Shown piece after piece: positions 1 through 30,252 of a DNA stretch of 64,000 nucleotides (position 1 is the stretch's first letter; each line of letters begins with the position of its first letter). The notes beneath the pieces are model-generated. The model searched no databases, was not told the DNA's origin, and was given only the letters and a program-made list of their open reading frames with translations. The position numbers were made by a program, and so were the translations under genes. Origin of the DNA: an uncultured Candidatus Saccharibacteria bacterium (GTDB lineage: Bacteria > Patescibacteriota > Minisyncoccia > Phycocordibacterales > CAYSCM01); assembly GCA_964429815.1 (NCBI GenBank), contig CAYSCM010000001.1, forward strand, positions 1 to 64,000, read 5' to 3'.

Positions 1-3000
1 CGTTGCTTCCCGCTTGGAGACAGCCGGGGCCGGTGGCGAGGTAGAGGGCGGAGGTCGAGGCGTTCCCGGAGACGTAGAGGTTAGTCGTCGTCGCGGAGGT
101 ACCGGTGGCATTCACGAAGGTGACGTTCTGGAGGGTGGTCGAGGCGGTGACGAGGAGGTTGGTCGTGGTGGCCTGACCGGCAATGGTGAGGCCGCTGCCC
201 TGGGTTCCCCCGCCGATCGTCGAGGAGCCGGAGGAGAGGAGGGTACTGAAGGTGCCAAGCCCGGTTGAGGTGAGGTTCCCTGCGGAGAGGACGGTGGCAA
301 AGAGGTTGGTGGAGGAGGCGGTCGTTGCGAAGAAGGAGGTGCTGGTTGCCTTGGTGGTGGTGGCGTTCCCCGAGGAGATGAGGTCGATGAGGCGGGTCAC
401 CCCAGCGTCGGTCACCGAGAGGAGCGTGGTCGACGCCTGGTTGACGAGCTCGAGGGCCTTGGTGGTTGAGGAGGTGCCGCTTCCCCACAGTGTGAGCTTT
501 CCGTACCCGGGAGTCGAGGTGCCGATCGTCGTCGTGCCCGAGACGTTGAGGGCGCCGATGACCGTCGAGGAGGCCCCCGAGATGAAGCCGGTGCTCCTCC
601 AGAGGGAGGAGGTGGCGTTGGTCCAGCTGACGTAGTCGGCGAGGGCCGTGGGGACGACGTAGTCGGTGCCGGCAAGGGCTGTGGTGACCAGGCCGCTGCT
701 CGTCTTGAGCAAGCCGTCCCCGGTTCCCAGGTAGAGGTTGCTGGTCGAGGCGGTGGTGGCGAAGAGGGTCGTGGTGGTGGCGTTGGTGGCGGTGGCGTTG
801 CCGGTCACCGTGAGGGAGCCCACCGTTGAGGAGGCGCGCACCGTGAGGTAGGTGAGGGCGACGGTGCCGGTGGCGTCGATGGAGAGTGCGGAGACGGAGC
901 TGGTGGCGAAGGTGCCCGCCGAGCTCGTGGCGAGGTAGAGGTTCCCGCCGGCGTTCCTGAAGCTCCAGTGGGCGTTCCCGAGCGAGGAGGAGTCGGAGAG
1001 CGTGAGCTGGGGACCGGTCGAAGAAGCAATTTGGAGGGCCCACTGGGGAGAGGTGGTGCCGATGCCGACCTTGAGGGCCGTGTTGGGTGAGATGGCGAAG
1101 GCGTCCGTGGTGGAGGTGGCCCACTTGGAGTTGGCCTGGAGGGCGCAATTGAGGTTGGTCGAGGTGATGAGGCCGTTGCTTCCCGCTTGGAGACAGCCGG
1201 GGCCGGTGGCGAGGTAGAGGGCGGAGGTGGAGGCGGTGCCGGAGACGTAGAGGTTAGTCGTCGTCGCGGAGGTACCGGTGGCATTCACGAAGGTGACGTT
1301 CTGGAGGGTGGTCGAGGCGGTGACGAGGAGGTTGGTCGTGGTGGCCTGACCGGCAATGGTGAGGCCGCTGCCCTGGGTTCCCCCGCCGATCGTCGAGGAG
1401 CCGGAGGAGAGGAGAGTGGCGAAGGTGCCGAGTCCCGTTGAGGTGAGGTTCCCTGCGGAGAGGACGGTGGCAAAGAGGTTGGTGGAGGAGGCGGTCGTTG
1501 CGAAGAAGGAGGTGCTGGTTGCGGCGGTTGAGGTGGAGCGGGTGATGTTGGCGAAGATGGTGGCTCCCGTGAAGGTGTTGTTGTCGCTAAGGAGCGTTGA
1601 GGAGGCGGCGGTTATGCTGCTGCAGGTGACCAATCCAGAGGCGCTGGTGAGCAGGGCAGTTCCGGCGGCGCAGGGGCCGACTCCCAGGTAGAGGGCGGAG
1701 GTGGAGGCGGTGGTGGCGAAGAGGGTCGTGGTGGTGGCGTTGGTGGCGGTGGCGTTGCCGGTCACCGTGAGGGAGCCCACCGTTGAGGAGGCGCGCACCG
1801 TGAGGTAGGTGAGGGCGACGGTGCCGGTGGCGTCGATGGAGAGCGCGGTGCCCGTCGCATTGAGAGAATCCGAGCTCGTGCCGATGCGGAAGATGCCGCC
1901 GATGTTGGAGAGGAGCCAATGTTTGAGGTTAGTCCCGGCGTTGGTGTTCGTGACGGCGATGTAGGGCGTGGCGGAAGCTACCTGGAGGCTCCATGCGGGC
2001 GTCGAGGTGCCGATGCCGACCGATACCGTGTCCTTCCCTGAGGTGCCGCCAAGCACGATGGCACGACTGATGCCAACATTCGCACCTGCGCCGATCGCGG
2101 TCGAGGAGGCGATGTTGTCCACACCGGTCGAAACATCGGCGAGATTACCGACGAAGACACTCGAGCTCACGTTCGTCGGATTAAAAGCTGCGGCATAGCC
2201 GAGCGCGACGTTGTTGGAGCCCGTCTGATTGCCCAAGAGTGCTGAGTCGCCGAGAGCCACGTTGTACGAGCCGCTCGTGTTGTTCTGAAGCGCCACGTAC
2301 CCTACCGCGGTGTTGTGAGAACCGCCGTTTCCGCTGATAAGGGCCGAAGCGCCGAGCGCCGTGTTGTAGGAGCCAGTCCCGTTAGTGAAGAGCGCTGAAT
2401 CGCCGACTGCAGTGTTTTGCGTGCCCGAGGTGTTGTTGGTAAGAGCTACGTTACCGAACGCACTGTTGTTGCTGCCGCCGACGTCTTTGAGGAGCGCCTG
2501 GGAGCCAACCGCGGTGTTGGCTGTGCCTCCTGAAACAGCCTTCAGCGTGTTGTATCCAAGCGCAGTGTTGTCGGTATCACTCACGCCTGCGGCCGCACCT
2601 GAGAGAAGACCGATGTAGATGCTGTGTGAGCCCGTTGGCAATTCGACAAAACGCGTGCCGTTCCAGTAGAGACCGGTAGCAACGAAGTTCGTATCGTTGA
2701 GGGTCGAGGTGCCGGTTCCCTGAACAATGAGGTTCCCTGTTGTTGTTGCCCCACCGGAAATGGTAAGCCCTGACGCTTGGGTTCCCCCACCTATCGTCGA
2801 TGAAGCTGTCGCAAGGAATCCCCCGAGTACCTCAAGTTTGGTGTTAAGCGAGGTGGTCGCGGTGCCGCCGATCACCACCGCTAGTGCGGCATTTGGATAA
2901 ATAGTTAAACCATTGGTCGAGGTTGCAAATTTGTCGGTATTGATGCCCCCACAGGAAGCGCCCGAGACCACTCCCGACCCATTCACTTGGAGACACTGGG

Positions 3001-6000
3001 TCGACCCATTCCCCACCCCAGAGACTACGAGGGCGGAGGTGGAGGCGGTGCCCGTTACCGCCAGGGTCGTCGTGGTGGCGTTGGTGGTCGTCGCATTGAG
3101 AGCGGTGAAGTTTTGGAGCGTCGAGGAGCCGGTAGCAAGGAGGTTGCTGAAGGTGCCAAGCCCGGTTGAGGTGAGGTTCCCTGCGGAGAGGACGGTGGCA
3201 AAGAGGTTGGTGGAGCTGGCCGTGGTGGCAAAGAGGGTCGTGGTGGTGGCGTTGGTGCCGGTGGCGTTTTGGAAGTTCGTGCCCAGGCCGTCGACGTAGA
3301 AGAGCGAGGTGCTGGCGGCGTTCACGACCGAGAGGATGCGTCCCCCGGCATCGATGCTCGTCGGCGCTCCCCCGCCCCACAGCGTGAGCTTCGCGTAGCC
3401 CGTCGAGGTGCCGACCGTGGAGGAGGCGAGGCTCGTGAAGCCGCCGGTGAGGGTCGAGAGGCCGGTGACCGAAAGAGTGCTGCCGAAGGCGCCGCTCCCG
3501 CTGCTCGTGAGGTTCCCTGTCGAGAGGATGGTCGAGAAGAGGTTCGTCGAGCTCGCGGTGGTGGTGAAGAGGGTGGTTCCCGTCGCGTTGGTGAAGGTGA
3601 AGGAGCCGAGGGTGCCCACCGTGAGGGAGCCGATGGTCGCGCTGTTGGCGAAGAGGTTGGTGGTCGAGGCGTTCCCGGAGACGTAGAGGTTAGTCGTCGT
3701 CGCGGAGGTACCGGTGGCATTCACGAAGGTGACGTTCTGGAGGGTGGTCGAGGCGGTGACGAGGAGGTTGGTCGTGGTGGCCTGACCGGCAATGGTGAGG
3801 CCGCTGCCCTGGGTTCCCCCGCCGATCGTCGAGGAGCCGGAGGAGAGGAGGGTACTGAAGGTGCCAAGCCCGGTTGAGGTGAGGTTCCCTGCGGAGAGGA
3901 CGGTGGCAAAGAGGTTGGTGGAGGAGGCGGTCGTTGCGAAGAAAGAGGTGCTGGTTGCGGCGGTTGAGGTGGAGCGGGTGATGTTGGCGAAGATGGTGGC
4001 TCCCGTGAAGGTGTTGTTGTCGCTAAGGAGCGTTGAGGAGGCGGCGGTTATGCTGCTGCAGGTGACCAATCCAGAGGCGCTGGTGAGCAGGGCAGTTCCG
4101 GCGGCGCAGGGGCCGACTCCCAGGTAGAGGGCGGAGGTGGAGGCGGTGGTGGCGAAGAGGGTCGTGGTGGTGGCGTTGGTGGCGGTGGCGTTCACGAAGG
4201 TGACGTTCTGGAGGGTAGTGGAGCCGGTAGCAAGGAGGTTGCTGAAGATGCCAATCCCGGCTGAGGTGAGGTTGCCCGCGTTGATGGAGGTGGCGTAGAG
4301 ATTCGAGGTGCTTGCGACCGATGCGAAGAGGTTCGTGGTCGTCGCCGAGGAGCCTGTAGCGTTTTGGAAGGTAAGGTTCTGGAGCGTTGAGCTTCCGGTC
4401 GCCAGGAGGTTGCTGAAGGTGCCGATACCCGAGCTTGTGATATTTCCTGCGGAAAGAACCGTTGCAAAGAAGTTCGTGGAACTTGCCGTCGTCGCAAATA
4501 AGGTGGTGGTCGTCGCATTGGTGCCGGTGGCGTTGCTGAACGTGATGTTTTGGAAAGTAGAGGAAGCCGTCACGAGGAGGTTGGTGGTGGTAGCCTGGCC
4601 GAAAACCGTGAGACCGCCCCCTTGCGTACCGTTGCCGATGGTCGAAGAAGCGTAGGCGGTGAGGCCGCCGTTGAATTGCGTGAGGGTCGAGGTTGCGTTG
4701 CCCGCAAGCTGAAATGGATACGCTCCGCCACCGCCTGAGCCGCACGCCGCGCCGGTAGCTGAAACGACGCCAGTGCCGGAAATCTGGAGACACTGCGTCG
4801 AGCCGTTCCCAAGACTCGAAATGATAAGCGCAGAGGTCGAGGCGGTGCCGGAGATGGCGAGGTTTGTGGTAGTGGCATTCGTGGTCGTCGCATTGAGAGC
4901 GGTGAAGTTTTGGAGGGTCGTGGAGCCAGTGGCCAGAAGTGTGCTGAAGGTGCCAAGCCCGGTCGAGGTGATGTTACCGGCAGAGAGGACCTGGGCAAAG
5001 AGGTTGGTGGAGCTTGCGGTCGTCGTAAAGAAGTTGGTGGTCGTCGCCGAAGTACCCGTCGCATTCCCAAAGGTGAAGTTCTGGAGGGTGGTCGAGGAGG
5101 TCGCGAGGAGGTTTTGGAGCGTAAAGAGTTTCGTCGTTTTGTTGAACGTAAGCGTTGCGTCGCCGTTGAAGATTCCGCCGTCATTGAACTGCACTTGCGT
5201 GTTGCTTCCGCCCGGGTTACCCGCGCCGCCGTTGGCCGAGAGGCAGGTGCCGTTGATCGAGAAGCATCCGCCGGTGAGATTGACCCCGCTTGCGAGGGTC
5301 GAGGTGGCCGTGGTCGTCGAGACATTGAGGACCCCGACCGAAAGGCCGTTCGCGACCGTCGAGGTACCGGCCGAGGCGGAAATGGAGAGGGCGCCGGTGA
5401 GCGTTCCTCCTGAAAGCGGCAAAAAATTAAGTCCGGTGATCGAGCCAGTGAACGTGGCGTCTTTGATGGTTACACCCGAAAGATTGTCGATGCGGTTGGT
5501 GAGGGCGACGCTCTGGAAATTGGCGGGGGTGGTCGGCGCAGGGCCGCTGAACTGAGGCGTGAACGCGCCGATCGAATAGATTTGGGCGGAAAGTTTATTG
5601 TCGAGCTGGTTCAAACGCACATTGAGCTCATCCTCGGTCACACTTGCAGCGACCGGCGCGCCGGAGACGACGCGCTCGATGGTTCGTTCAACCACTTTCG
5701 TCTGAATGGGCTGAACGATGACCGTCGTACTCGCCGGATTGTACGTGTTGTTGATATTTTGAACGATCGACTGCAGGGAAGGTGCGTTTGAACGGTGCCA
5801 GAACGCGAATATGGCCCGCACCGCGTCATATACGCTCGTCGGAGAAAGCGCGAAAGCGACCTGATGCGAAGCGCTCACGAGTCCCGAGCGGATCTGCGCA
5901 ACACTTACCGAAAATGCTTGCCCAAGACTTTCATGAGCCAACGTATCACGGAGGTTTCGAGAAGAGGAAGACGCTACGGAAGAGGAAACGGCTGCAAGGG

Positions 6001-6871
6001 ATGCGGACACTTTAGAGCGACCAGCGTCTGTGAGTTTGAGGCCAGACACTAAAGACGTGCCGGCAGCGCGTCCGAGCTCAGCGCTACCAACGGAAGCGTG
6101 GAAGGAGAGAGTCCCGATAGTTTCCCCAAGCTGATGGATAACCGCCACGTACCTATCACCAAACTCTAAAACAGCGGATAGAGCCGCTCTGTGAACGTTT
6201 CCACCAAAGGCGCTCACGGCGTCGGAGAACGTCAGAGGCTCTAAGTGAAGTTCAGAGATGGTCCGGGCAAGTTCACGGCCGCTTCGATACACACCAAAAG
6301 CTGGCTCATTCGCATGAATCGCGCCGTAGGAAAGAACAACCGCAACATCACGGAGCACGTTCAACTCTCCTGGAGAAGGAGCAATGCGCTGCGCCAAGGC
6401 GTGGAATCTCTCTGCTCCGGCAAACACTCCCCCGAAGACGCTGAAAAATATAAGCGCTGCCGTCGCCACCCGAAACGCTGAAAATGCAAATATGGCCGGC
6501 TTTCGTGGGGATGTCAACGTTCTGACAGGAAAAGAAATCGGCGCAAGAGGTTCAACCACGACCTTCATCGAAGGGACGAGTCTCGTTGCCGGTTTGGAAA
6601 GAGGTCTCGCGATTGAGTGCGTGGCAGCACGATGGTACTCAGCCTTACGAGATCGACTTATTTCCGCATGGCGACGGGTAGTGCCCTCCTTTGCCTTTGC
6701 GATAAACGCGAAGAAAGATTCCTCTTCAACGTACCAGATGCGCCCGATGCGCTGCGCAGTTACCTTGCCCTGACGACATAGGCGAGCGACATAATCGTTG
6801 GTATAACCAACAGCATCCCCGGCTGCTTTTGCGGAAAGATATTTTTTATCGAGGATGAGTAGGTGACTCAT
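1..6871 (-). CDS. Giant repeat-rich surface/adhesin-like protein, partial (C-terminus beyond window start). N-terminal excisionase-type HTH (HTH_17-like), single TM helix, then >2,200 aa Thr/Ser/Asn/Ala/Gly-rich repeats with Hep_Hag/YadA-head-like and tail-fibre-like modules
   Basis: Manual translation of minus frame (codon top position = 1 mod 3): ATG at 6871-6869 preceded by in-frame TAA (6901-6899); no stop down to position 1 (no M-to-stop ORF in this frame in the ORF track because it runs off the window). N-term MSHLLILDKKYLSAKAAGDAVGYTNDYVARLCRQGKVTAQRIGRIWYVEEE = Xis-like HTH; hydrophobic KPAIFAFSAFRVATAALIFFSVFGGVFAGA = TM; downstream low-complexity repeats e.g. STLQNVTFVNATGTSATTTNLYVSG, NTAVGDSALFTNGTGSYNTALGASAL, KVGIGTTSPQWALQIASST. 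Wrong-frame ORFs in the track (His/Arg-rich, Pro-rich, Gly/Glu-rich) are artefacts of this frame. Confidence 0.75.
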   Translation of the reverse strand, partial: MSHLLILDKKYLSAKAAGDAVGYTNDYVARLCRQGKVTAQRIGRIWYVEEESFFAFIAKAKEGTTRRHAEISRSRKAEYHRAATHSIARPLSKPATRLVPSMKVVVEPLAPISFPVRTLTSPRKPAIFAFSAFRVATAALIFFSVFGGVFAGAERFHALAQRIAPSPGELNVLRDVAVVLSYGAIHANEPAFGVYRSGRELARTISELHLEPLTFSDAVSAFGGNVHRAALSAVLEFGDRYVAVIHQLGETIGTLSFHASVGSAELGRAAGTSLVSGLKLTDAGRSKVSASLAAVSSSVASSSSRNLRDTLAHESLGQAFSVSVAQIRSGLVSASHQVAFALSPTSVYDAVRAIFAFWHRSNAPSLQSIVQNINNTYNPASTTVIVQPIQTKVVERTIERVVSGAPVAASVTEDELNVRLNQLDNKLSAQIYSIGAFTPQFSGPAPTTPANFQSVALTNRIDNLSGVTIKDATFTGSITGLNFLPLSGGTLTGALSISASAGTSTVANGLSVGVLNVSTTTATSTLASGVNLTGGCFSINGTCLSANGGAGNPGGSNTQVQFNDGGIFNGDATLTFNKTTKLFTLQNLLATSSTTLQNFTFGNATGTSATTTNFFTTTASSTNLFAQVLSAGNITSTGLGTFSTLLATGSTTLQNFTALNATTTNATTTNLAISGTASTSALIISSLGNGSTQCLQISGTGVVSATGAACGSGGGGAYPFQLAGNATSTLTQFNGGLTAYASSTIGNGTQGGGLTVFGQATTTNLLVTASSTFQNITFSNATGTNATTTTLFATTASSTNFFATVLSAGNITSSGIGTFSNLLATGSSTLQNLTFQNATGSSATTTNLFASVASTSNLYATSINAGNLTSAGIGIFSNLLATGSTTLQNVTFVNATATNATTTTLFATTASTSALYLGVGPCAAGTALLTSASGLVTCSSITAASSTLLSDNNTFTGATIFANITRSTSTAATSTSFFATTASSTNLFATVLSAGNLTSTGLGTFSTLLSSGSSTIGGGTQGSGLTIAGQATTTNLLVTASTTLQNVTFVNATGTSATTTNLYVSGNASTTNLFANSATIGSLTVGTLGSFTFTNATGTTLFTTTASSTNLFSTILSTGNLTSSGSGAFGSTLSVTGLSTLTGGFTSLASSTVGTSTGYAKLTLWGGGAPTSIDAGGRILSVVNAASTSLFYVDGLGTNFQNATGTNATTTTLFATTASSTNLFATVLSAGNLTSTGLGTFSNLLATGSSTLQNFTALNATTTNATTTTLAVTGTASTSALVVSGVGNGSTQCLQVNGSGVVSGASCGGINTDKFATSTNGLTIYPNAALAVVIGGTATTSLNTKLEVLGGFLATASSTIGGGTQASGLTISGGATTTGNLIVQGTGTSTLNDTNFVATGLYWNGTRFVELPTGSHSIYIGLLSGAAAGVSDTDNTALGYNTLKAVSGGTANTAVGSQALLKDVGGSNNSAFGNVALTNNTSGTQNTAVGDSALFTNGTGSYNTALGASALISGNGGSHNTAVGYVALQNNTSGSYNVALGDSALLGNQTGSNNVALGYAAAFNPTNVSSSVFVGNLADVSTGVDNIASSTAIGAGANVGISRAIVLGGTSGKDTVSVGIGTSTPAWSLQVASATPYIAVTNTNAGTNLKHWLLSNIGGIFRIGTSSDSLNATGTALSIDATGTVALTYLTVRASSTVGSLTVTGNATATNATTTTLFATTASTSALYLGVGPCAAGTALLTSASGLVTCSSITAASSTLLSDNNTFTGATIFANITRSTSTAATSTSFFATTASSTNLFATVLSAGNLTSTGLGTFATLLSSGSSTIGGGTQGSGLTIAGQATTTNLLVTASTTLQNVTFVNATGTSATTTNLYVSGTASTSALYLATGPGCLQAGSNGLITSTNLNCALQANSKWATSTTDAFAISPNTALKVGIGTTSPQWALQIASSTGPQLTLSDSSSLGNAHWSFRNAGGNLYLATSSAGTFATSSVSALSIDATGTVALTYLTVRASSTVGSLTVTGNATATNATTTTLFATTASTSNLYLGTGDGLLKTSSGLVTTALAGTDYVVPTALADYVSWTNATSSLWRSTGFISGASSTVIGALNVSGTTTIGTSTPGYGKLTLWGSGTSSTTKALELVNQASTTLLSVTDAGVTRLIDLISSGNATTTKATSTSFFATTASSTNLFATVLSAGNLTSTGLGTFSTLLSSGSSTIGGGTQGSGLTIAGQATTTNLLVTASTTLQNVTFVNATGTSATTTNLYVSGNASTSALYLATGPGCLQAGSN
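2..350. repeat. Intragenic near-identical DNA repeat, copy A (matches 1176..1524 and 3661..3953)
   Basis: Identical 62-aa and 84-aa spurious ORFs recur at 112..300 / 1285..1473 / 3721..3909 and 14..268 / 1187..1441; direct sequence comparison shows ~300 bp identity with 1-2 mismatches. Confidence 0.85.
1176..1750. repeat. Intragenic near-identical DNA repeat, copy B (about 510 bp near-identical to 3676..4186; 1707..1852 also matches 751..896)
   Basis: ORF 1356..1691 (+) is identical in protein to 3792..4127 (+); direct comparison of the nucleotide rows. Confidence 0.85.
3661..4190. repeat. Intragenic near-identical DNA repeat, copy C
   Basis: See copies A and B; offsets are 2436 bp (B to C) and 3603 bp (A to C). 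Confidence 0.85.
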
Positions 6872-7132
6872 TGGTCGCCCACCCGAAGTGCTTATAGTTT
6901 ACGCCATCATTTCGAAAATTACCTAGAAAAAATGTGGAAAACTGGCCAGGTAATTCCTAGATATGTCGCCACACTTTTTAGCCCTTTGAATAAAGGTTTC
7001 TTAGCTAGTCCAGCGCGAGACCTGCCGAGGCTCATTTATTATTCCGCCCAGTTCAGGCCTAGATTTCTGATGCTCCTCCTGTAGTGCTTTGGCCGAGAAA
7101 TAATATGCCTTAAAACCTATATTTATATATCG

Positions 7133-8305
7133 TTAGAGCTGTAAAAGATGCCCTAGGGCCAGGTATACATTTATAGCCACATGGGCTATGAATCCAAAAG
7201 CCGCGGGAGCTGGCGGAGTCGCGATTTGTGCGATAGGCCTTGTGACGGCGTACGTGCCGCTCAAAAAGCCACTAAGAACAGCAAACAAGAAAGCCGAAAG
7301 CGCAAAGGCGGCTGCTAGGAGCTTTCCAAGGGAGCGAAGGTATCCATAGCGATCGATCGTAAGGGTCTGGGCGGTAACAACCCCAGCAGGGACCAGAAGT
7401 GCCTTTGCACCCTGCTTAGAAGGAGGCGCTGCTACTATGTCGGTCTTCATTGGTTTTGTGAGCGCAGGGATGAGTGGGTGCGCATCTGGATGATAGGTAA
7501 TGGGAACACGACGCTCACCGGAAACTATTCTTTCCTTTATTTGATCCTCATGAGGGGAAATAGGCGCAGTGGTGGCATTGAGAGCGGGAGAATTAAGCAT
7601 ATTTTGTGGGCTGTTTTTTGAAACCTCCTCACGAGATTCTCCCAAACTGACCGACAATGGCGTAGTCCCCAGATCGGCAACCGGGTGAAGCTCAGTTGAT
7701 TGAGGAGCCTCGGTGTTTGTATCCGCCTTTGCGCTCTGAGGTATGCTCTCCGGTAATAGACTCTTTTGAACCTCGGTTTCGAAAAACGTAGGCCACCATG
7801 ACAGGAGCTGGTCGGGAACATTCCCTGCCCCCGGAAGTTTGCTAGGGTTGAAAATGGATTGTTGAGGGAGTCTCTCATAGGTATGTACTCTAGCTACTAA
7901 TGGCTTTACTTGTGCCCGGGACCCTCGTTTTCGACCACGAGCTTCACGGCTGCGGTTTTTCATATACTGTTCAAGCTCCTCTGGGTCCAAAAACCATGAG
8001 CGCCCCACCAGCTTTCCCGCTACCCTTCCAGCACGGATGAGCTGACCGACGTAGTCAGACTCGTACCCGAAAAGCGCGGAGGCCTCCCGTGCAGTTATGT
8101 ATTTTTTGCCGTTGACGAAAAGAGTGTGCTCCACCCTTTCAGTATAGGGCTTTTTTTCTCGGTTACCTGAGAAATGAAGTGGATATGCTGTCAGCAAAAC
8201 TTTTCCGCGGCGTCGTTTTCTGCATTTAGGTAAGCATCCGTGCAAGGAGGTCCCGCAGAAGAACGGGATTAGCTGAGCCCTTACTTGCACGCATTCCCTG
8301 CCCAA
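7133..8305 (-). CDS. HTH_17 (excisionase-like) domain protein with Pro/Ser-rich linker and C-terminal membrane anchor; paralog of the N-terminus of the giant protein. Start uncertain: the M at 8305 overlaps the gatB 3' end by 80 nt; an in-frame TTG at 8197 is possible
   Basis: ORF track 390 aa; motif KKYITAREASALFGYESDYVGQLIRAGRVAGKLVGRSWFL parallels KKYLSAKAAGDAVGYTNDYVARLCRQGKVTAQRIGRIWYV of the giant gene; C-terminal hydrophobic LLAAAFALSAFLFAVLSGFLSG...FGFIAHVAINVYLALGHLL. Confidence 0.55.
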   Translation of the reverse strand: MGRECVQVRAQLIPFFCGTSLHGCLPKCRKRRRGKVLLTAYPLHFSGNREKKPYTERVEHTLFVNGKKYITAREASALFGYESDYVGQLIRAGRVAGKLVGRSWFLDPEELEQYMKNRSREARGRKRGSRAQVKPLVARVHTYERLPQQSIFNPSKLPGAGNVPDQLLSWWPTFFETEVQKSLLPESIPQSAKADTNTEAPQSTELHPVADLGTTPLSVSLGESREEVSKNSPQNMLNSPALNATTAPISPHEDQIKERIVSGERRVPITYHPDAHPLIPALTKPMKTDIVAAPPSKQGAKALLVPAGVVTAQTLTIDRYGYLRSLGKLLAAAFALSAFLFAVLSGFLSGTYAVTRPIAQIATPPAPAAFGFIAHVAINVYLALGHLLQL

Positions 8306-30203: not shown

Positions 30204-30226
30204 TTCGGGGTTGCTCGAATCAGAAA

Positions 30227-30252
30227 GCCCCGACGTACGTCGGGGCTTTTTT
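30227..30252. terminator. Bidirectional rho-independent terminator: palindrome GCCCCGACGTACGTCGGGGC followed by TTTTTT
   Basis: Seen directly; lies between the convergent genes 29571..30203 (+) and 30251..31213 (-). Confidence 0.65.

Follow-up and report, generated by a model that had tools for sequence, protein, structure and literature searches.

We analysed a 64,000-nt stretch of contig CAYSCM010000001.1 (positions 1 to 64,000 of the forward strand; hereafter the window), which carries a giant, internally repetitive gene at its left end. A six-frame scan followed by translation revealed a stop-free open frame of 2299 codons on the minus strand, running from 6898 to 2 and exiting the left end of the window. 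Translation probably begins at the ATG at 6871, which was also used by an independent gene call on Logan contig L001. The giant gene proposed in an earlier reading of the letters alone (the original prediction) is therefore real. Past residue 470 the protein is composed largely of threonine (21%), serine (14%), glycine (12.5%), alanine (12%), leucine (11%) and asparagine (8%). The gene and the repeats within it are as follows.

2-6871, minus strand: giant open reading frame (ORF), coding for the N-terminal 2290 aa of the protein.
1-349, minus strand: repeat copy A, the most C-terminal copy seen, truncated by the window edge; 97.1% identical to 1174-1522 and, over 43-349, 98.7% identical to 3652-3958.
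1174-1756, minus strand: repeat copy B, with divergent core patches at 1221-1238 and 1415-1436.
3652-4192, minus strand: repeat copy C, nearest to the N-terminus; it matches 1216-1756 at 97.4% identity and includes perfect runs of 282 and 248 nt.
1682-1848, minus strand: copy 1 of repeat type Y, overlapping the right part of copy B, from the repeat search and self-BLASTN.
725-891, minus strand: copy 2 of repeat type Y, 96.4% identical to 1682-1848.
4118-4192, minus strand: partial third copy of repeat type Y, 93.3% identical.
2988-5113, minus strand: older degenerate family of 171-nt (57-aa) repeats, 60-87% identical, recognized from repeat families D1, D2, D4 and D5, which are spaced by 171 nt and multiples of it, and from protein self-comparison.

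Repeats were located by self-BLASTN of window positions 1-7000 together with a repeat search, and all alignments were gap-free. The longest pair (1216-1756 versus 3652-4192, 541 nt) contained 14 mismatches, the pair 1-349 versus 1174-1522 (349 nt) contained 10, and the pair 43-349 versus 3652-3958 (307 nt) contained 4. The two type Y copies (167 nt) differed at 6 positions, with just 1 mismatch inside 751-891. The original description of segments identical apart from one or two substitutions thus applied to 751-891 but not to the large blocks, and its long perfect repeats resolved into blocks of 96.4-98.7% identity that contain perfect tracts of 282, 248, 176 and 140 nt. The segment boundaries it gave were essentially right, if somewhat different from those drawn by self-BLASTN, and its spacings of about 1.17 kb and 2.44 kb were measured as 1173 and 2436 nt. 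These offsets, like the two others of 3609 and 957 nt, are divisible by three; all copies therefore share one frame, as had been proposed. Repeated 31-mers of the entire 64-kb window were confined to 1-4915, which places the repeat signal far above chance. The sole repeated 21-mer tract outside the giant gene was a 26-nt stretch at 30224-30249, which may be a palindrome or terminator. No long-period tandem array was detected by TRF, which reported short periodicities of 15-30 nt only. The near-identical blocks are a dispersed mosaic; they are not arranged in tandem. They are made up of units of the older 57-aa family, an example of whose motif is 'TTNLFAT..SAGN.TS.G.GTFS.LLATGS.TLQN.TF.NATGT.ATTT'.

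Comparison of the three large copies revealed how their differences are distributed. Copies A and C differ at four sites only, even though they lie 3.6 kb apart, and copy B, located between them, is the divergent one, with ten private differences in its two core patches. The left flank of copy B (1174-1215) is common to A only, and its 234-nt right flank (1523-1756) is common to C only. Clustering of mismatches was significant, as judged by the longest perfect run (248 nt, P~0.002) and by nearest-neighbour distances (P~0.0008), and identity between copies extends to synonymous sites along the long tracts. This mosaic is consistent with several recent duplication and gene-conversion events rather than with a single tandem duplication. 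The closest match to the 181-aa block in any other organism was ~51% identical, which argues that such duplications arise independently and recently in each lineage. Judged from their sequence, the near-identical blocks are recent, lineage-specific segmental duplications that took place in frame within the gene.

Searches with the full 2290-aa protein against Pfam and NCBIfam gave no match apart from a sub-threshold match to HTH_17. Analysis of the body of the protein by profile and pattern searches identified the following modules.

2015-2479, minus strand: unique tail-spike-like segment with 'NTA(V/L)G..AL' repeats, inside a matching stretch at 1937-2800 (PHROG phrog_4636, tail spike, E 5e-25).
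1985-2020, minus strand: capping-loop-like motif VGIGTSTPAWSL, aa 1618-1629, from a regular-expression search.
1034-1069, minus strand: capping-loop-like motif VGIGTTSPQWAL, aa 1935-1946, also from a regular-expression search, corresponding to DNA repeat family D7.

The tail-spike-like segment also matched PHROG virion structural proteins (E 1e-23 and 3e-19). When a profile of one super-module (A1) was compared with the PDB, it matched residues 91-229 of Bd2133 from Bdellovibrio bacteriovorus (PDB 8OND, E 7e-4) as well as 8OML, and the motifs VGIGTSTPAWSL and VGIGTTSPQWAL aligned with the Bd2133 loops VGINTAAPLQKL and VGIGATAPTAKL. These two motifs, beginning at aa 1618 and 1935, carry the capping-loop pattern V-G-I-G/N-x-x-x-P-x-x-x-L. 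Single-sequence searches of the PDB with phmmer returned noise only, for the body and for the tail-spike-like segment alone. The protein has a lone cysteine at aa 32, and its later cysteines are paired 7-16 residues apart (536/543, 694/710, 922/938, 1293/1307, 1734/1750 and 1893/1909, followed by 2284, for which no partner is assigned). Where modules join, the pairs are part of a conserved 'G.(G)CLQ...G....S....C' motif, which homologues also have and which probably forms disulfide-closed loops.

The N-terminus of the protein is of a different kind and contains two features.

6701-6865, minus strand: excisionase/MerR-type winged helix-turn-helix (HTH), aa 3-57, predicted to be cytoplasmic, from profiles, AlphaFold2 and Foldseek.
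6410-6499, minus strand: single hydrophobic transmembrane (TM) helix, aa ~125-154, with a basic linker before it, from a Kyte-Doolittle scan.

Sequence searches with the HTH region gave weak matches to Pfam HTH_17 (E 0.061) and a PHROG excisionase (E 0.0084), and an N-terminal profile (A2) matched TraN/AM32 in the PDB (E 5e-4). An AlphaFold2 model of the N-terminus (predicted local distance difference test score, pLDDT, 84; 92-95 over residues 10-60) displayed a beta-helix-turn-helix-wing fold, and Foldseek aligned this model with mycobacteriophage Pukovnik Xis, BldC and the DNA-binding TraN at a root-mean-square deviation of 1.5-2.7 A. The motif '…GK.Y.S...A....GY..DY...L.R..K.....G..WYV…' is common to other giant Patescibacteria proteins and to a 333-aa protein encoded next to the giant gene, and in an alignment of 12 homologues with this neighbour Y27, L31 and W46 were invariant. 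With an HTH_17-type N-terminus followed by a membrane helix, the giant protein belongs to an HTH-anchored subgroup. We infer that the TM helix acts as a signal-anchor with its N-terminus inside, which would place all downstream residues outside the cell. A search with the N-terminal 480 aa against 5.8 billion proteins identified two short matches restricted to the HTH and no orthologue. The truncated products of L001 and L002, although 100% identical, were absent from the results of the first large protein search, which suggests that fragments from this population are not indexed there.

To place the protein in a family, the repeat body was used to retrieve homologues. This analysis identified 239 homologues at E<=1e-5, all giant proteins (1000-3100 aa) from metagenome-assembled genomes (MAGs) of Candidatus Parcubacteria/Patescibacteria. 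Their annotations vary between 'tail fiber domain-containing protein', 'trimeric autotransporter adhesin' and hypothetical protein, and many of them carry PF13884 (Peptidase_S74). The best homologue had an E value of 6e-220, and identity reached 42% across 34% of the query. An exhaustive search with the module profile returned 15,003 cluster representatives at E<=1e-3, 2,839 of them at E<=1e-10, including proteins of up to 7,634 aa and with up to 39 module matches. The capping-loop motif was present in 98 of 122 retrieved homologues. By sequence similarity, the giant protein is clearly assigned to a large uncharacterized family of giant 'tail fiber domain' proteins of Patescibacteria. Relatives such as P0003 (KW796_01460) and, from Ca. 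Zambryskibacteria, P0012 and P0018 share with it the 57-aa T/S/A/N-rich units, the 'VGIGTxxPxxxL' modules and the 'CLQ...C' loops, and some also share the winged-HTH N-terminus and the place downstream of gatB. In contrast, the N-terminal 480 aa of the window's protein are, apart from the HTH, essentially without homologue, its duplicated blocks are lineage-specific, and the GC content of its repeats is 62-67%.

Internal repeats were then compared across the family. Among the 122 homologues, 45 had internal repeats that were 60 aa or longer and at least 90% identical, and 25 had such repeats of 100 aa or longer. At the DNA level, one relative (L004) contained a repeat of 815 nt (97.3% identity) and a second of 602 nt (98.3%), and another (L006) contained a 1102-nt overlap at 99.8% derived from 801-nt tandem units; the closest homologue (L005) had no DNA repeat above 79%. 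Of 29 giant ORFs in GatB-anchored Paceibacteria loci, 8 had repeats that were 150 nt or longer and at least 90% identical. Near-identical internal repeats are a common feature of the family and not special to the window's gene.

The impact of repeats on gene length was examined by comparing alleles within 90%-identity clusters of family members. The proteins P0111 (1656 aa) and P0253 (1713 aa) were 100% identical except for one internal 57-aa indel; their DNA was 99.4-99.9% identical, and the indel corresponded to one 171-nt direct-repeat unit whose copies are 88% identical. Likewise, P0229 (1685 aa) was 99.9% identical to P0234 and P0228 (1777 and 1776 aa) except for one internal 92-aa indel, and comparison of the DNA of P0229 with that of P0074 from the same cluster revealed a matching 276-nt unit with repeat copies 93% identical. 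Units that are 88-93% identical are too divergent to collapse in assembly, and these differences therefore point to real gain or loss of units among alleles from different samples. Both cases are seen at loci L167-L170, from Ca. Zambryskibacteria and related metagenome contigs, where two adjacent giant genes have single-unit indels: the S74-ending product of one is ~1656-1713 aa long (57-aa indel), and the Gly_rich_2 product of its neighbour ~1685-1777 aa (92-aa indel). The allele comparisons support repeat-mediated length change in the family and lend support, by analogy, to the mechanism of the original prediction. Since near-identical alleles differ by whole units, fibre length and module content are probably fast-evolving.

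Taken together, these data make it likely that the gene encodes a membrane-anchored and probably trimeric adhesin resembling a tail fibre, with a stalk lengthened by recent in-frame segmental duplications; we infer a role in host attachment. In line with the original prediction, the product is most likely a surface fibre, here one anchored in the membrane, as indicated by its homologues, the TM helix, the PHROG tail-spike match and the match to Bd2133. In the model that we propose, a cytoplasmic excisionase-type winged helix would be followed by one membrane helix and then by an extracellular stalk, probably trimeric, in which Thr/Ser/Ala/Asn-rich 57-aa beta-repeats are interspersed with tail-spike-like and beta-helix modules bearing 'VGIGTxxPxxxL' capping loops. 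Blocks of 300-540 nt would have been duplicated recently within the gene and later patched by gene conversion, giving the A/B/C mosaic, in which flanks are shared and differences cluster. In-frame alleles longer or shorter by 319, 391, 812 or 1203 aa would then be expected from unequal homologous recombination among the copies. Perfect tracts of 140-282 nt offer ample homology for RecA-type homologous recombination and, combined with offsets in multiples of three, mean that recombinant alleles would stay in frame. Such recombination would change both fibre length and module content, with unique modules lost or duplicated rather than simple units added. The original view of a locus prone to expansion and contraction by recombination thus stands as far as tract length is concerned, but requires modification in that the copies are dispersed and recombinants would shift segments of 319-1203 aa.

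Several points weigh against this interpretation. Given the dispersed layout, recombination would remove or add unique modules, and selection might act against the resulting alleles; ongoing length variation at the window locus is extrapolated from relatives. Consensus polishing that used multi-mapped reads could account for part of the very high identity of the copies. No donor for the copy B patches was found in the window, where the best match had 7 mismatches in 32 nt; the donor could sit in the C-terminal part of the gene beyond the window. The C-terminus of the protein, which may hold a tip, an S74 chaperone or another domain, likewise lies beyond the left window end. The trimeric fibre fold, though probable, is deduced from weak-to-moderate similarity (the E value of 7e-4 to Bd2133) and from family annotation, and an AlphaFold2 monomer model of the module at aa 1646-2052, built from a 24-sequence alignment, scored poorly (pLDDT 52, predicted template modelling score 0.28), as would be expected if the module is an obligate intertwined trimer.

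The most serious alternative is that copy order, copy number or near-identity was created during assembly, by a walk through or collapse of the repeat graph or by homogenizing polishing. Contigs 100% identical to the window were present in three Logan short-read assemblies (SRR12313479, SRR12313480 and SRR12313482), and both long ones stop inside the giant gene, L001 at 4886 and L002 (SRR12313480) at 4983. A literature search for the runs gave no hits. The end of L001 falls within a 35-nt exact repeat (4881-4915, equal to 3084-3118), in agreement with the earlier warning that the repeats are an assembly hazard. At the end of L002 no exact repeat of at least 31 nt was found in the window, the nearest match being at 3186 with 3 mismatches; this end could be due to low coverage, to a repeat that recurs in the C-terminal part of the gene beyond the window, or to a strain variant. 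Repeats of this kind break short-read graphs, and the path taken in the window may depend on long reads, pairing or curation. At 176-282 nt, the perfect tracts are longer than the usual k-mers and come close to the length of short reads, the patchy differences could represent a mixture of unresolved copies or strains, and any in-frame repeat path leaves the ORF open, so that an intact frame does not validate the arrangement. Against this, each copy has distinct flanks and its own substitutions, which argues that the assembler separated the copies; a contig with the same GatB in the 0.2-1 Mb class suggests a highly contiguous source assembly; similar repeats occur in many independently assembled relatives; and the unit indels of relatives involve units too divergent to collapse. 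An assembly artefact is a minority explanation, although one to be reckoned with. More generally, short-read metagenome assemblies break at such genes. Unless long reads were used, most MAGs of the Candidate Phyla Radiation (CPR) give no reliable account of the length or copy number of these genes, or even of whether they are present.

A stable, selected redundancy, in which the fibre needs several identical modules that are maintained by purifying selection or occasional conversion and do not vary in copy number, is rather unlikely. The separation of the blocks by unique modules would fit a defined architecture, and 11.5 kb of flanking sequence was invariant across three samples, suggesting a clonal, stable population; selection on the protein, however, cannot account for synonymous-site identity over 176-282 nt, the blocks are lineage-specific, at or below ~51% identity to any homologue, and one-unit differences between alleles do occur in relatives. 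Programmed diversification, with the repeats acting as template and variable regions of a diversity-generating retroelement (DGR) or as cassettes for antigenic variation, is very improbable. DGRs aimed at large surface proteins are common in CPR bacteria, but the mismatches between copies are not confined to adenines, as expected of a template/variable pair, and some are synonymous C/G and T/C changes. The 40 larger ORFs of the window, scanned against Pfam, yielded no match to a reverse transcriptase, invertase or recombinase, and no repeat copy was found outside the giant gene in the window. On the strength of the mismatch spectrum, the scanned ORFs and the confinement of the copies to the gene, a DGR or cassette mechanism was rejected as far as the window reaches. 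Recent duplication and conversion within a tail-fibre-like adhesin gene thus remains the explanation that we prefer.

By sequence and structure, the closest known proteins appear to be mosaic adhesive trimer (MAT) and S74 tail-fibre-like adhesins. MAT fibres are displayed on the surface of Bdellovibrio for prey recognition and bear capping loops on intertwined trimeric beta-helix units; MAT proteins are ~1000 aa long and start with a signal peptide, after which comes a conserved beta domain of ~130 aa (PMC10769870). The window's protein resembles the MAT protein Bd2133 of B. bacteriovorus in its beta-helix region, where the capping loops align, and resembles S74-type tail fibres and tailspikes through its PHROG tail-spike match and through its many homologues that end in Peptidase_S74. 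Like MAT fibres, it is put together from modules as a mosaic and is a probable surface structure of a cell-attaching bacterium. In contrast, it is at least 2290 aa long and begins with a cytoplasmic winged HTH, a basic linker and a TM anchor in place of the MAT-type signal peptide and N-terminal beta domain. A trimeric autotransporter adhesin, the name given by the Joint Genome Institute (JGI) to some homologues, was considered and set aside as less likely; the anchor here is an N-terminal TM helix, and no outer membrane is known in CPR bacteria.

As far as the working principle goes, Periscope proteins are the nearest known class, despite the lack of a tandem array. In Periscope proteins (SasG, Rib, Sgo_0707, CdrA) the stalk is encoded by DNA repeats of very high identity, and recombination has been proposed to alter stalk length; a single globular domain is repeated head to tail in a tandem array, with a copy number documented to vary among strains (PMC8201768). 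The giant gene is similar in encoding a probable surface protein whose stalk is specified by long DNA repeats of very high identity. It differs in that unique modules separate its near-identical blocks, which are scattered at distances of 957-3609 nt, and in that no globular folds were recognized. Measured against the Periscope criterion of tandem repeats longer than 50 aa at 80% identity or more, the blocks are large and similar enough (116-181 aa at 96% identity or more) but are spaced 319-1203 aa apart. In the family, fibre length and module content probably evolve fast in a manner akin to Periscope proteins and to the mosaicism of phage tail fibres. Patescibacteria live attached to other microbes, and giant surface proteins, almost none of which have been characterized, are prime candidates for host recognition; the locus provides a clear example of a fibre gene that appears to have been remodelled by recent in-frame segmental duplication and conversion.

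The gene next to the giant gene also encodes a winged-HTH protein.

7133-8134, minus strand: upstream neighbour of 333 aa with a winged-HTH N-terminus and C-terminal membrane helices (Pfam HTH_17, E 2.7e-5; Logan gene call).

This neighbour is situated between gatB and the giant gene, and a BLASTP comparison with the giant N-terminus revealed 29% identity (E 1e-12). Other genes nearby are cellular (gatB, obg, NUDIX, ABC transporter and secA). Among the 79 Paceibacteria loci with enough DNA downstream of gatB, ~15 had an ORF of 900-2961 aa with an HTH start, located 0.5-2.2 kb downstream of gatB on the same strand; loci with such an ORF include L038, L044, L045, L056, L070, L077, L082, L099, L128, L142, L147, L150, L157 and L164. 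The window's giant gene also lies downstream of gatB on the same strand, and thus occupies a position that recurs in the class; this conserved synteny suggests that the other ORFs are its positional orthologues. Roughly one in five of the Paceibacteria loci examined has the complete order of gatB, a small HTH protein and an HTH-anchored giant fibre. Combined with the HTH and TM topology, this gene order hints at a membrane-tethered DNA-binding function, and the fibre may be more than an adhesin: we regard it as a speculative and rather unlikely extension that it forms a ToxR-like system coupling host contact or mechanical load to gene regulation or to DNA handling at the membrane.

GatB was used to place the source organism and was 58-64% identical to proteins from Parcubacteria/Paceibacterota MAGs, with best matches that include Adlerbacteria, Taylorbacteria and Yonathbacteria. 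By this similarity the organism is taken to be a Paceibacteria-type CPR bacterium, one of the ultra-small Patescibacteria, with no close relative sequenced. No strain-level relative was found through GatB among GTDB species representatives and JGI metagenomes (top identity 64%), and an exact 30-mer from the unique middle of the giant gene had no match in the genome contig or metagenome contig collections. Searches for tRNA genes and Rfam families gave no match in the 64-kb window. The GC content of the window is 50-59% (53-57% was also obtained) and rises to 62-67% in the repeats of the giant gene, values that are high for the genome of a Paceibacteria-type CPR bacterium.

Two further observations concern glycans. 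We counted 66 N-x-S/T sequons between aa 471 and 2290, compared with 47.7 +/- 5.2 in shuffled sequences; this moderate enrichment is mostly due to the recurring 'NAT.T' motif. The window also contains a glycan-biosynthesis island of ~45 kb (18726-64000). It encodes a Wzy_C/TPR protein, a fused ATP-sulfurylase/APS-kinase for synthesis of 3'-phosphoadenosine 5'-phosphosulfate (PAPS) and three sulfotransferases, together with a NeuB nonulosonic-acid synthase, a cytidylyltransferase, a Polysacc_synt flippase, several epimerases/dehydratases, a DegT aminotransferase, glycosyltransferases, methyltransferases and a radical SAM enzyme. This gene content suggests the production of sulfated or sialic-like surface glycans, possibly carried on the Thr/Ser-rich fibre.

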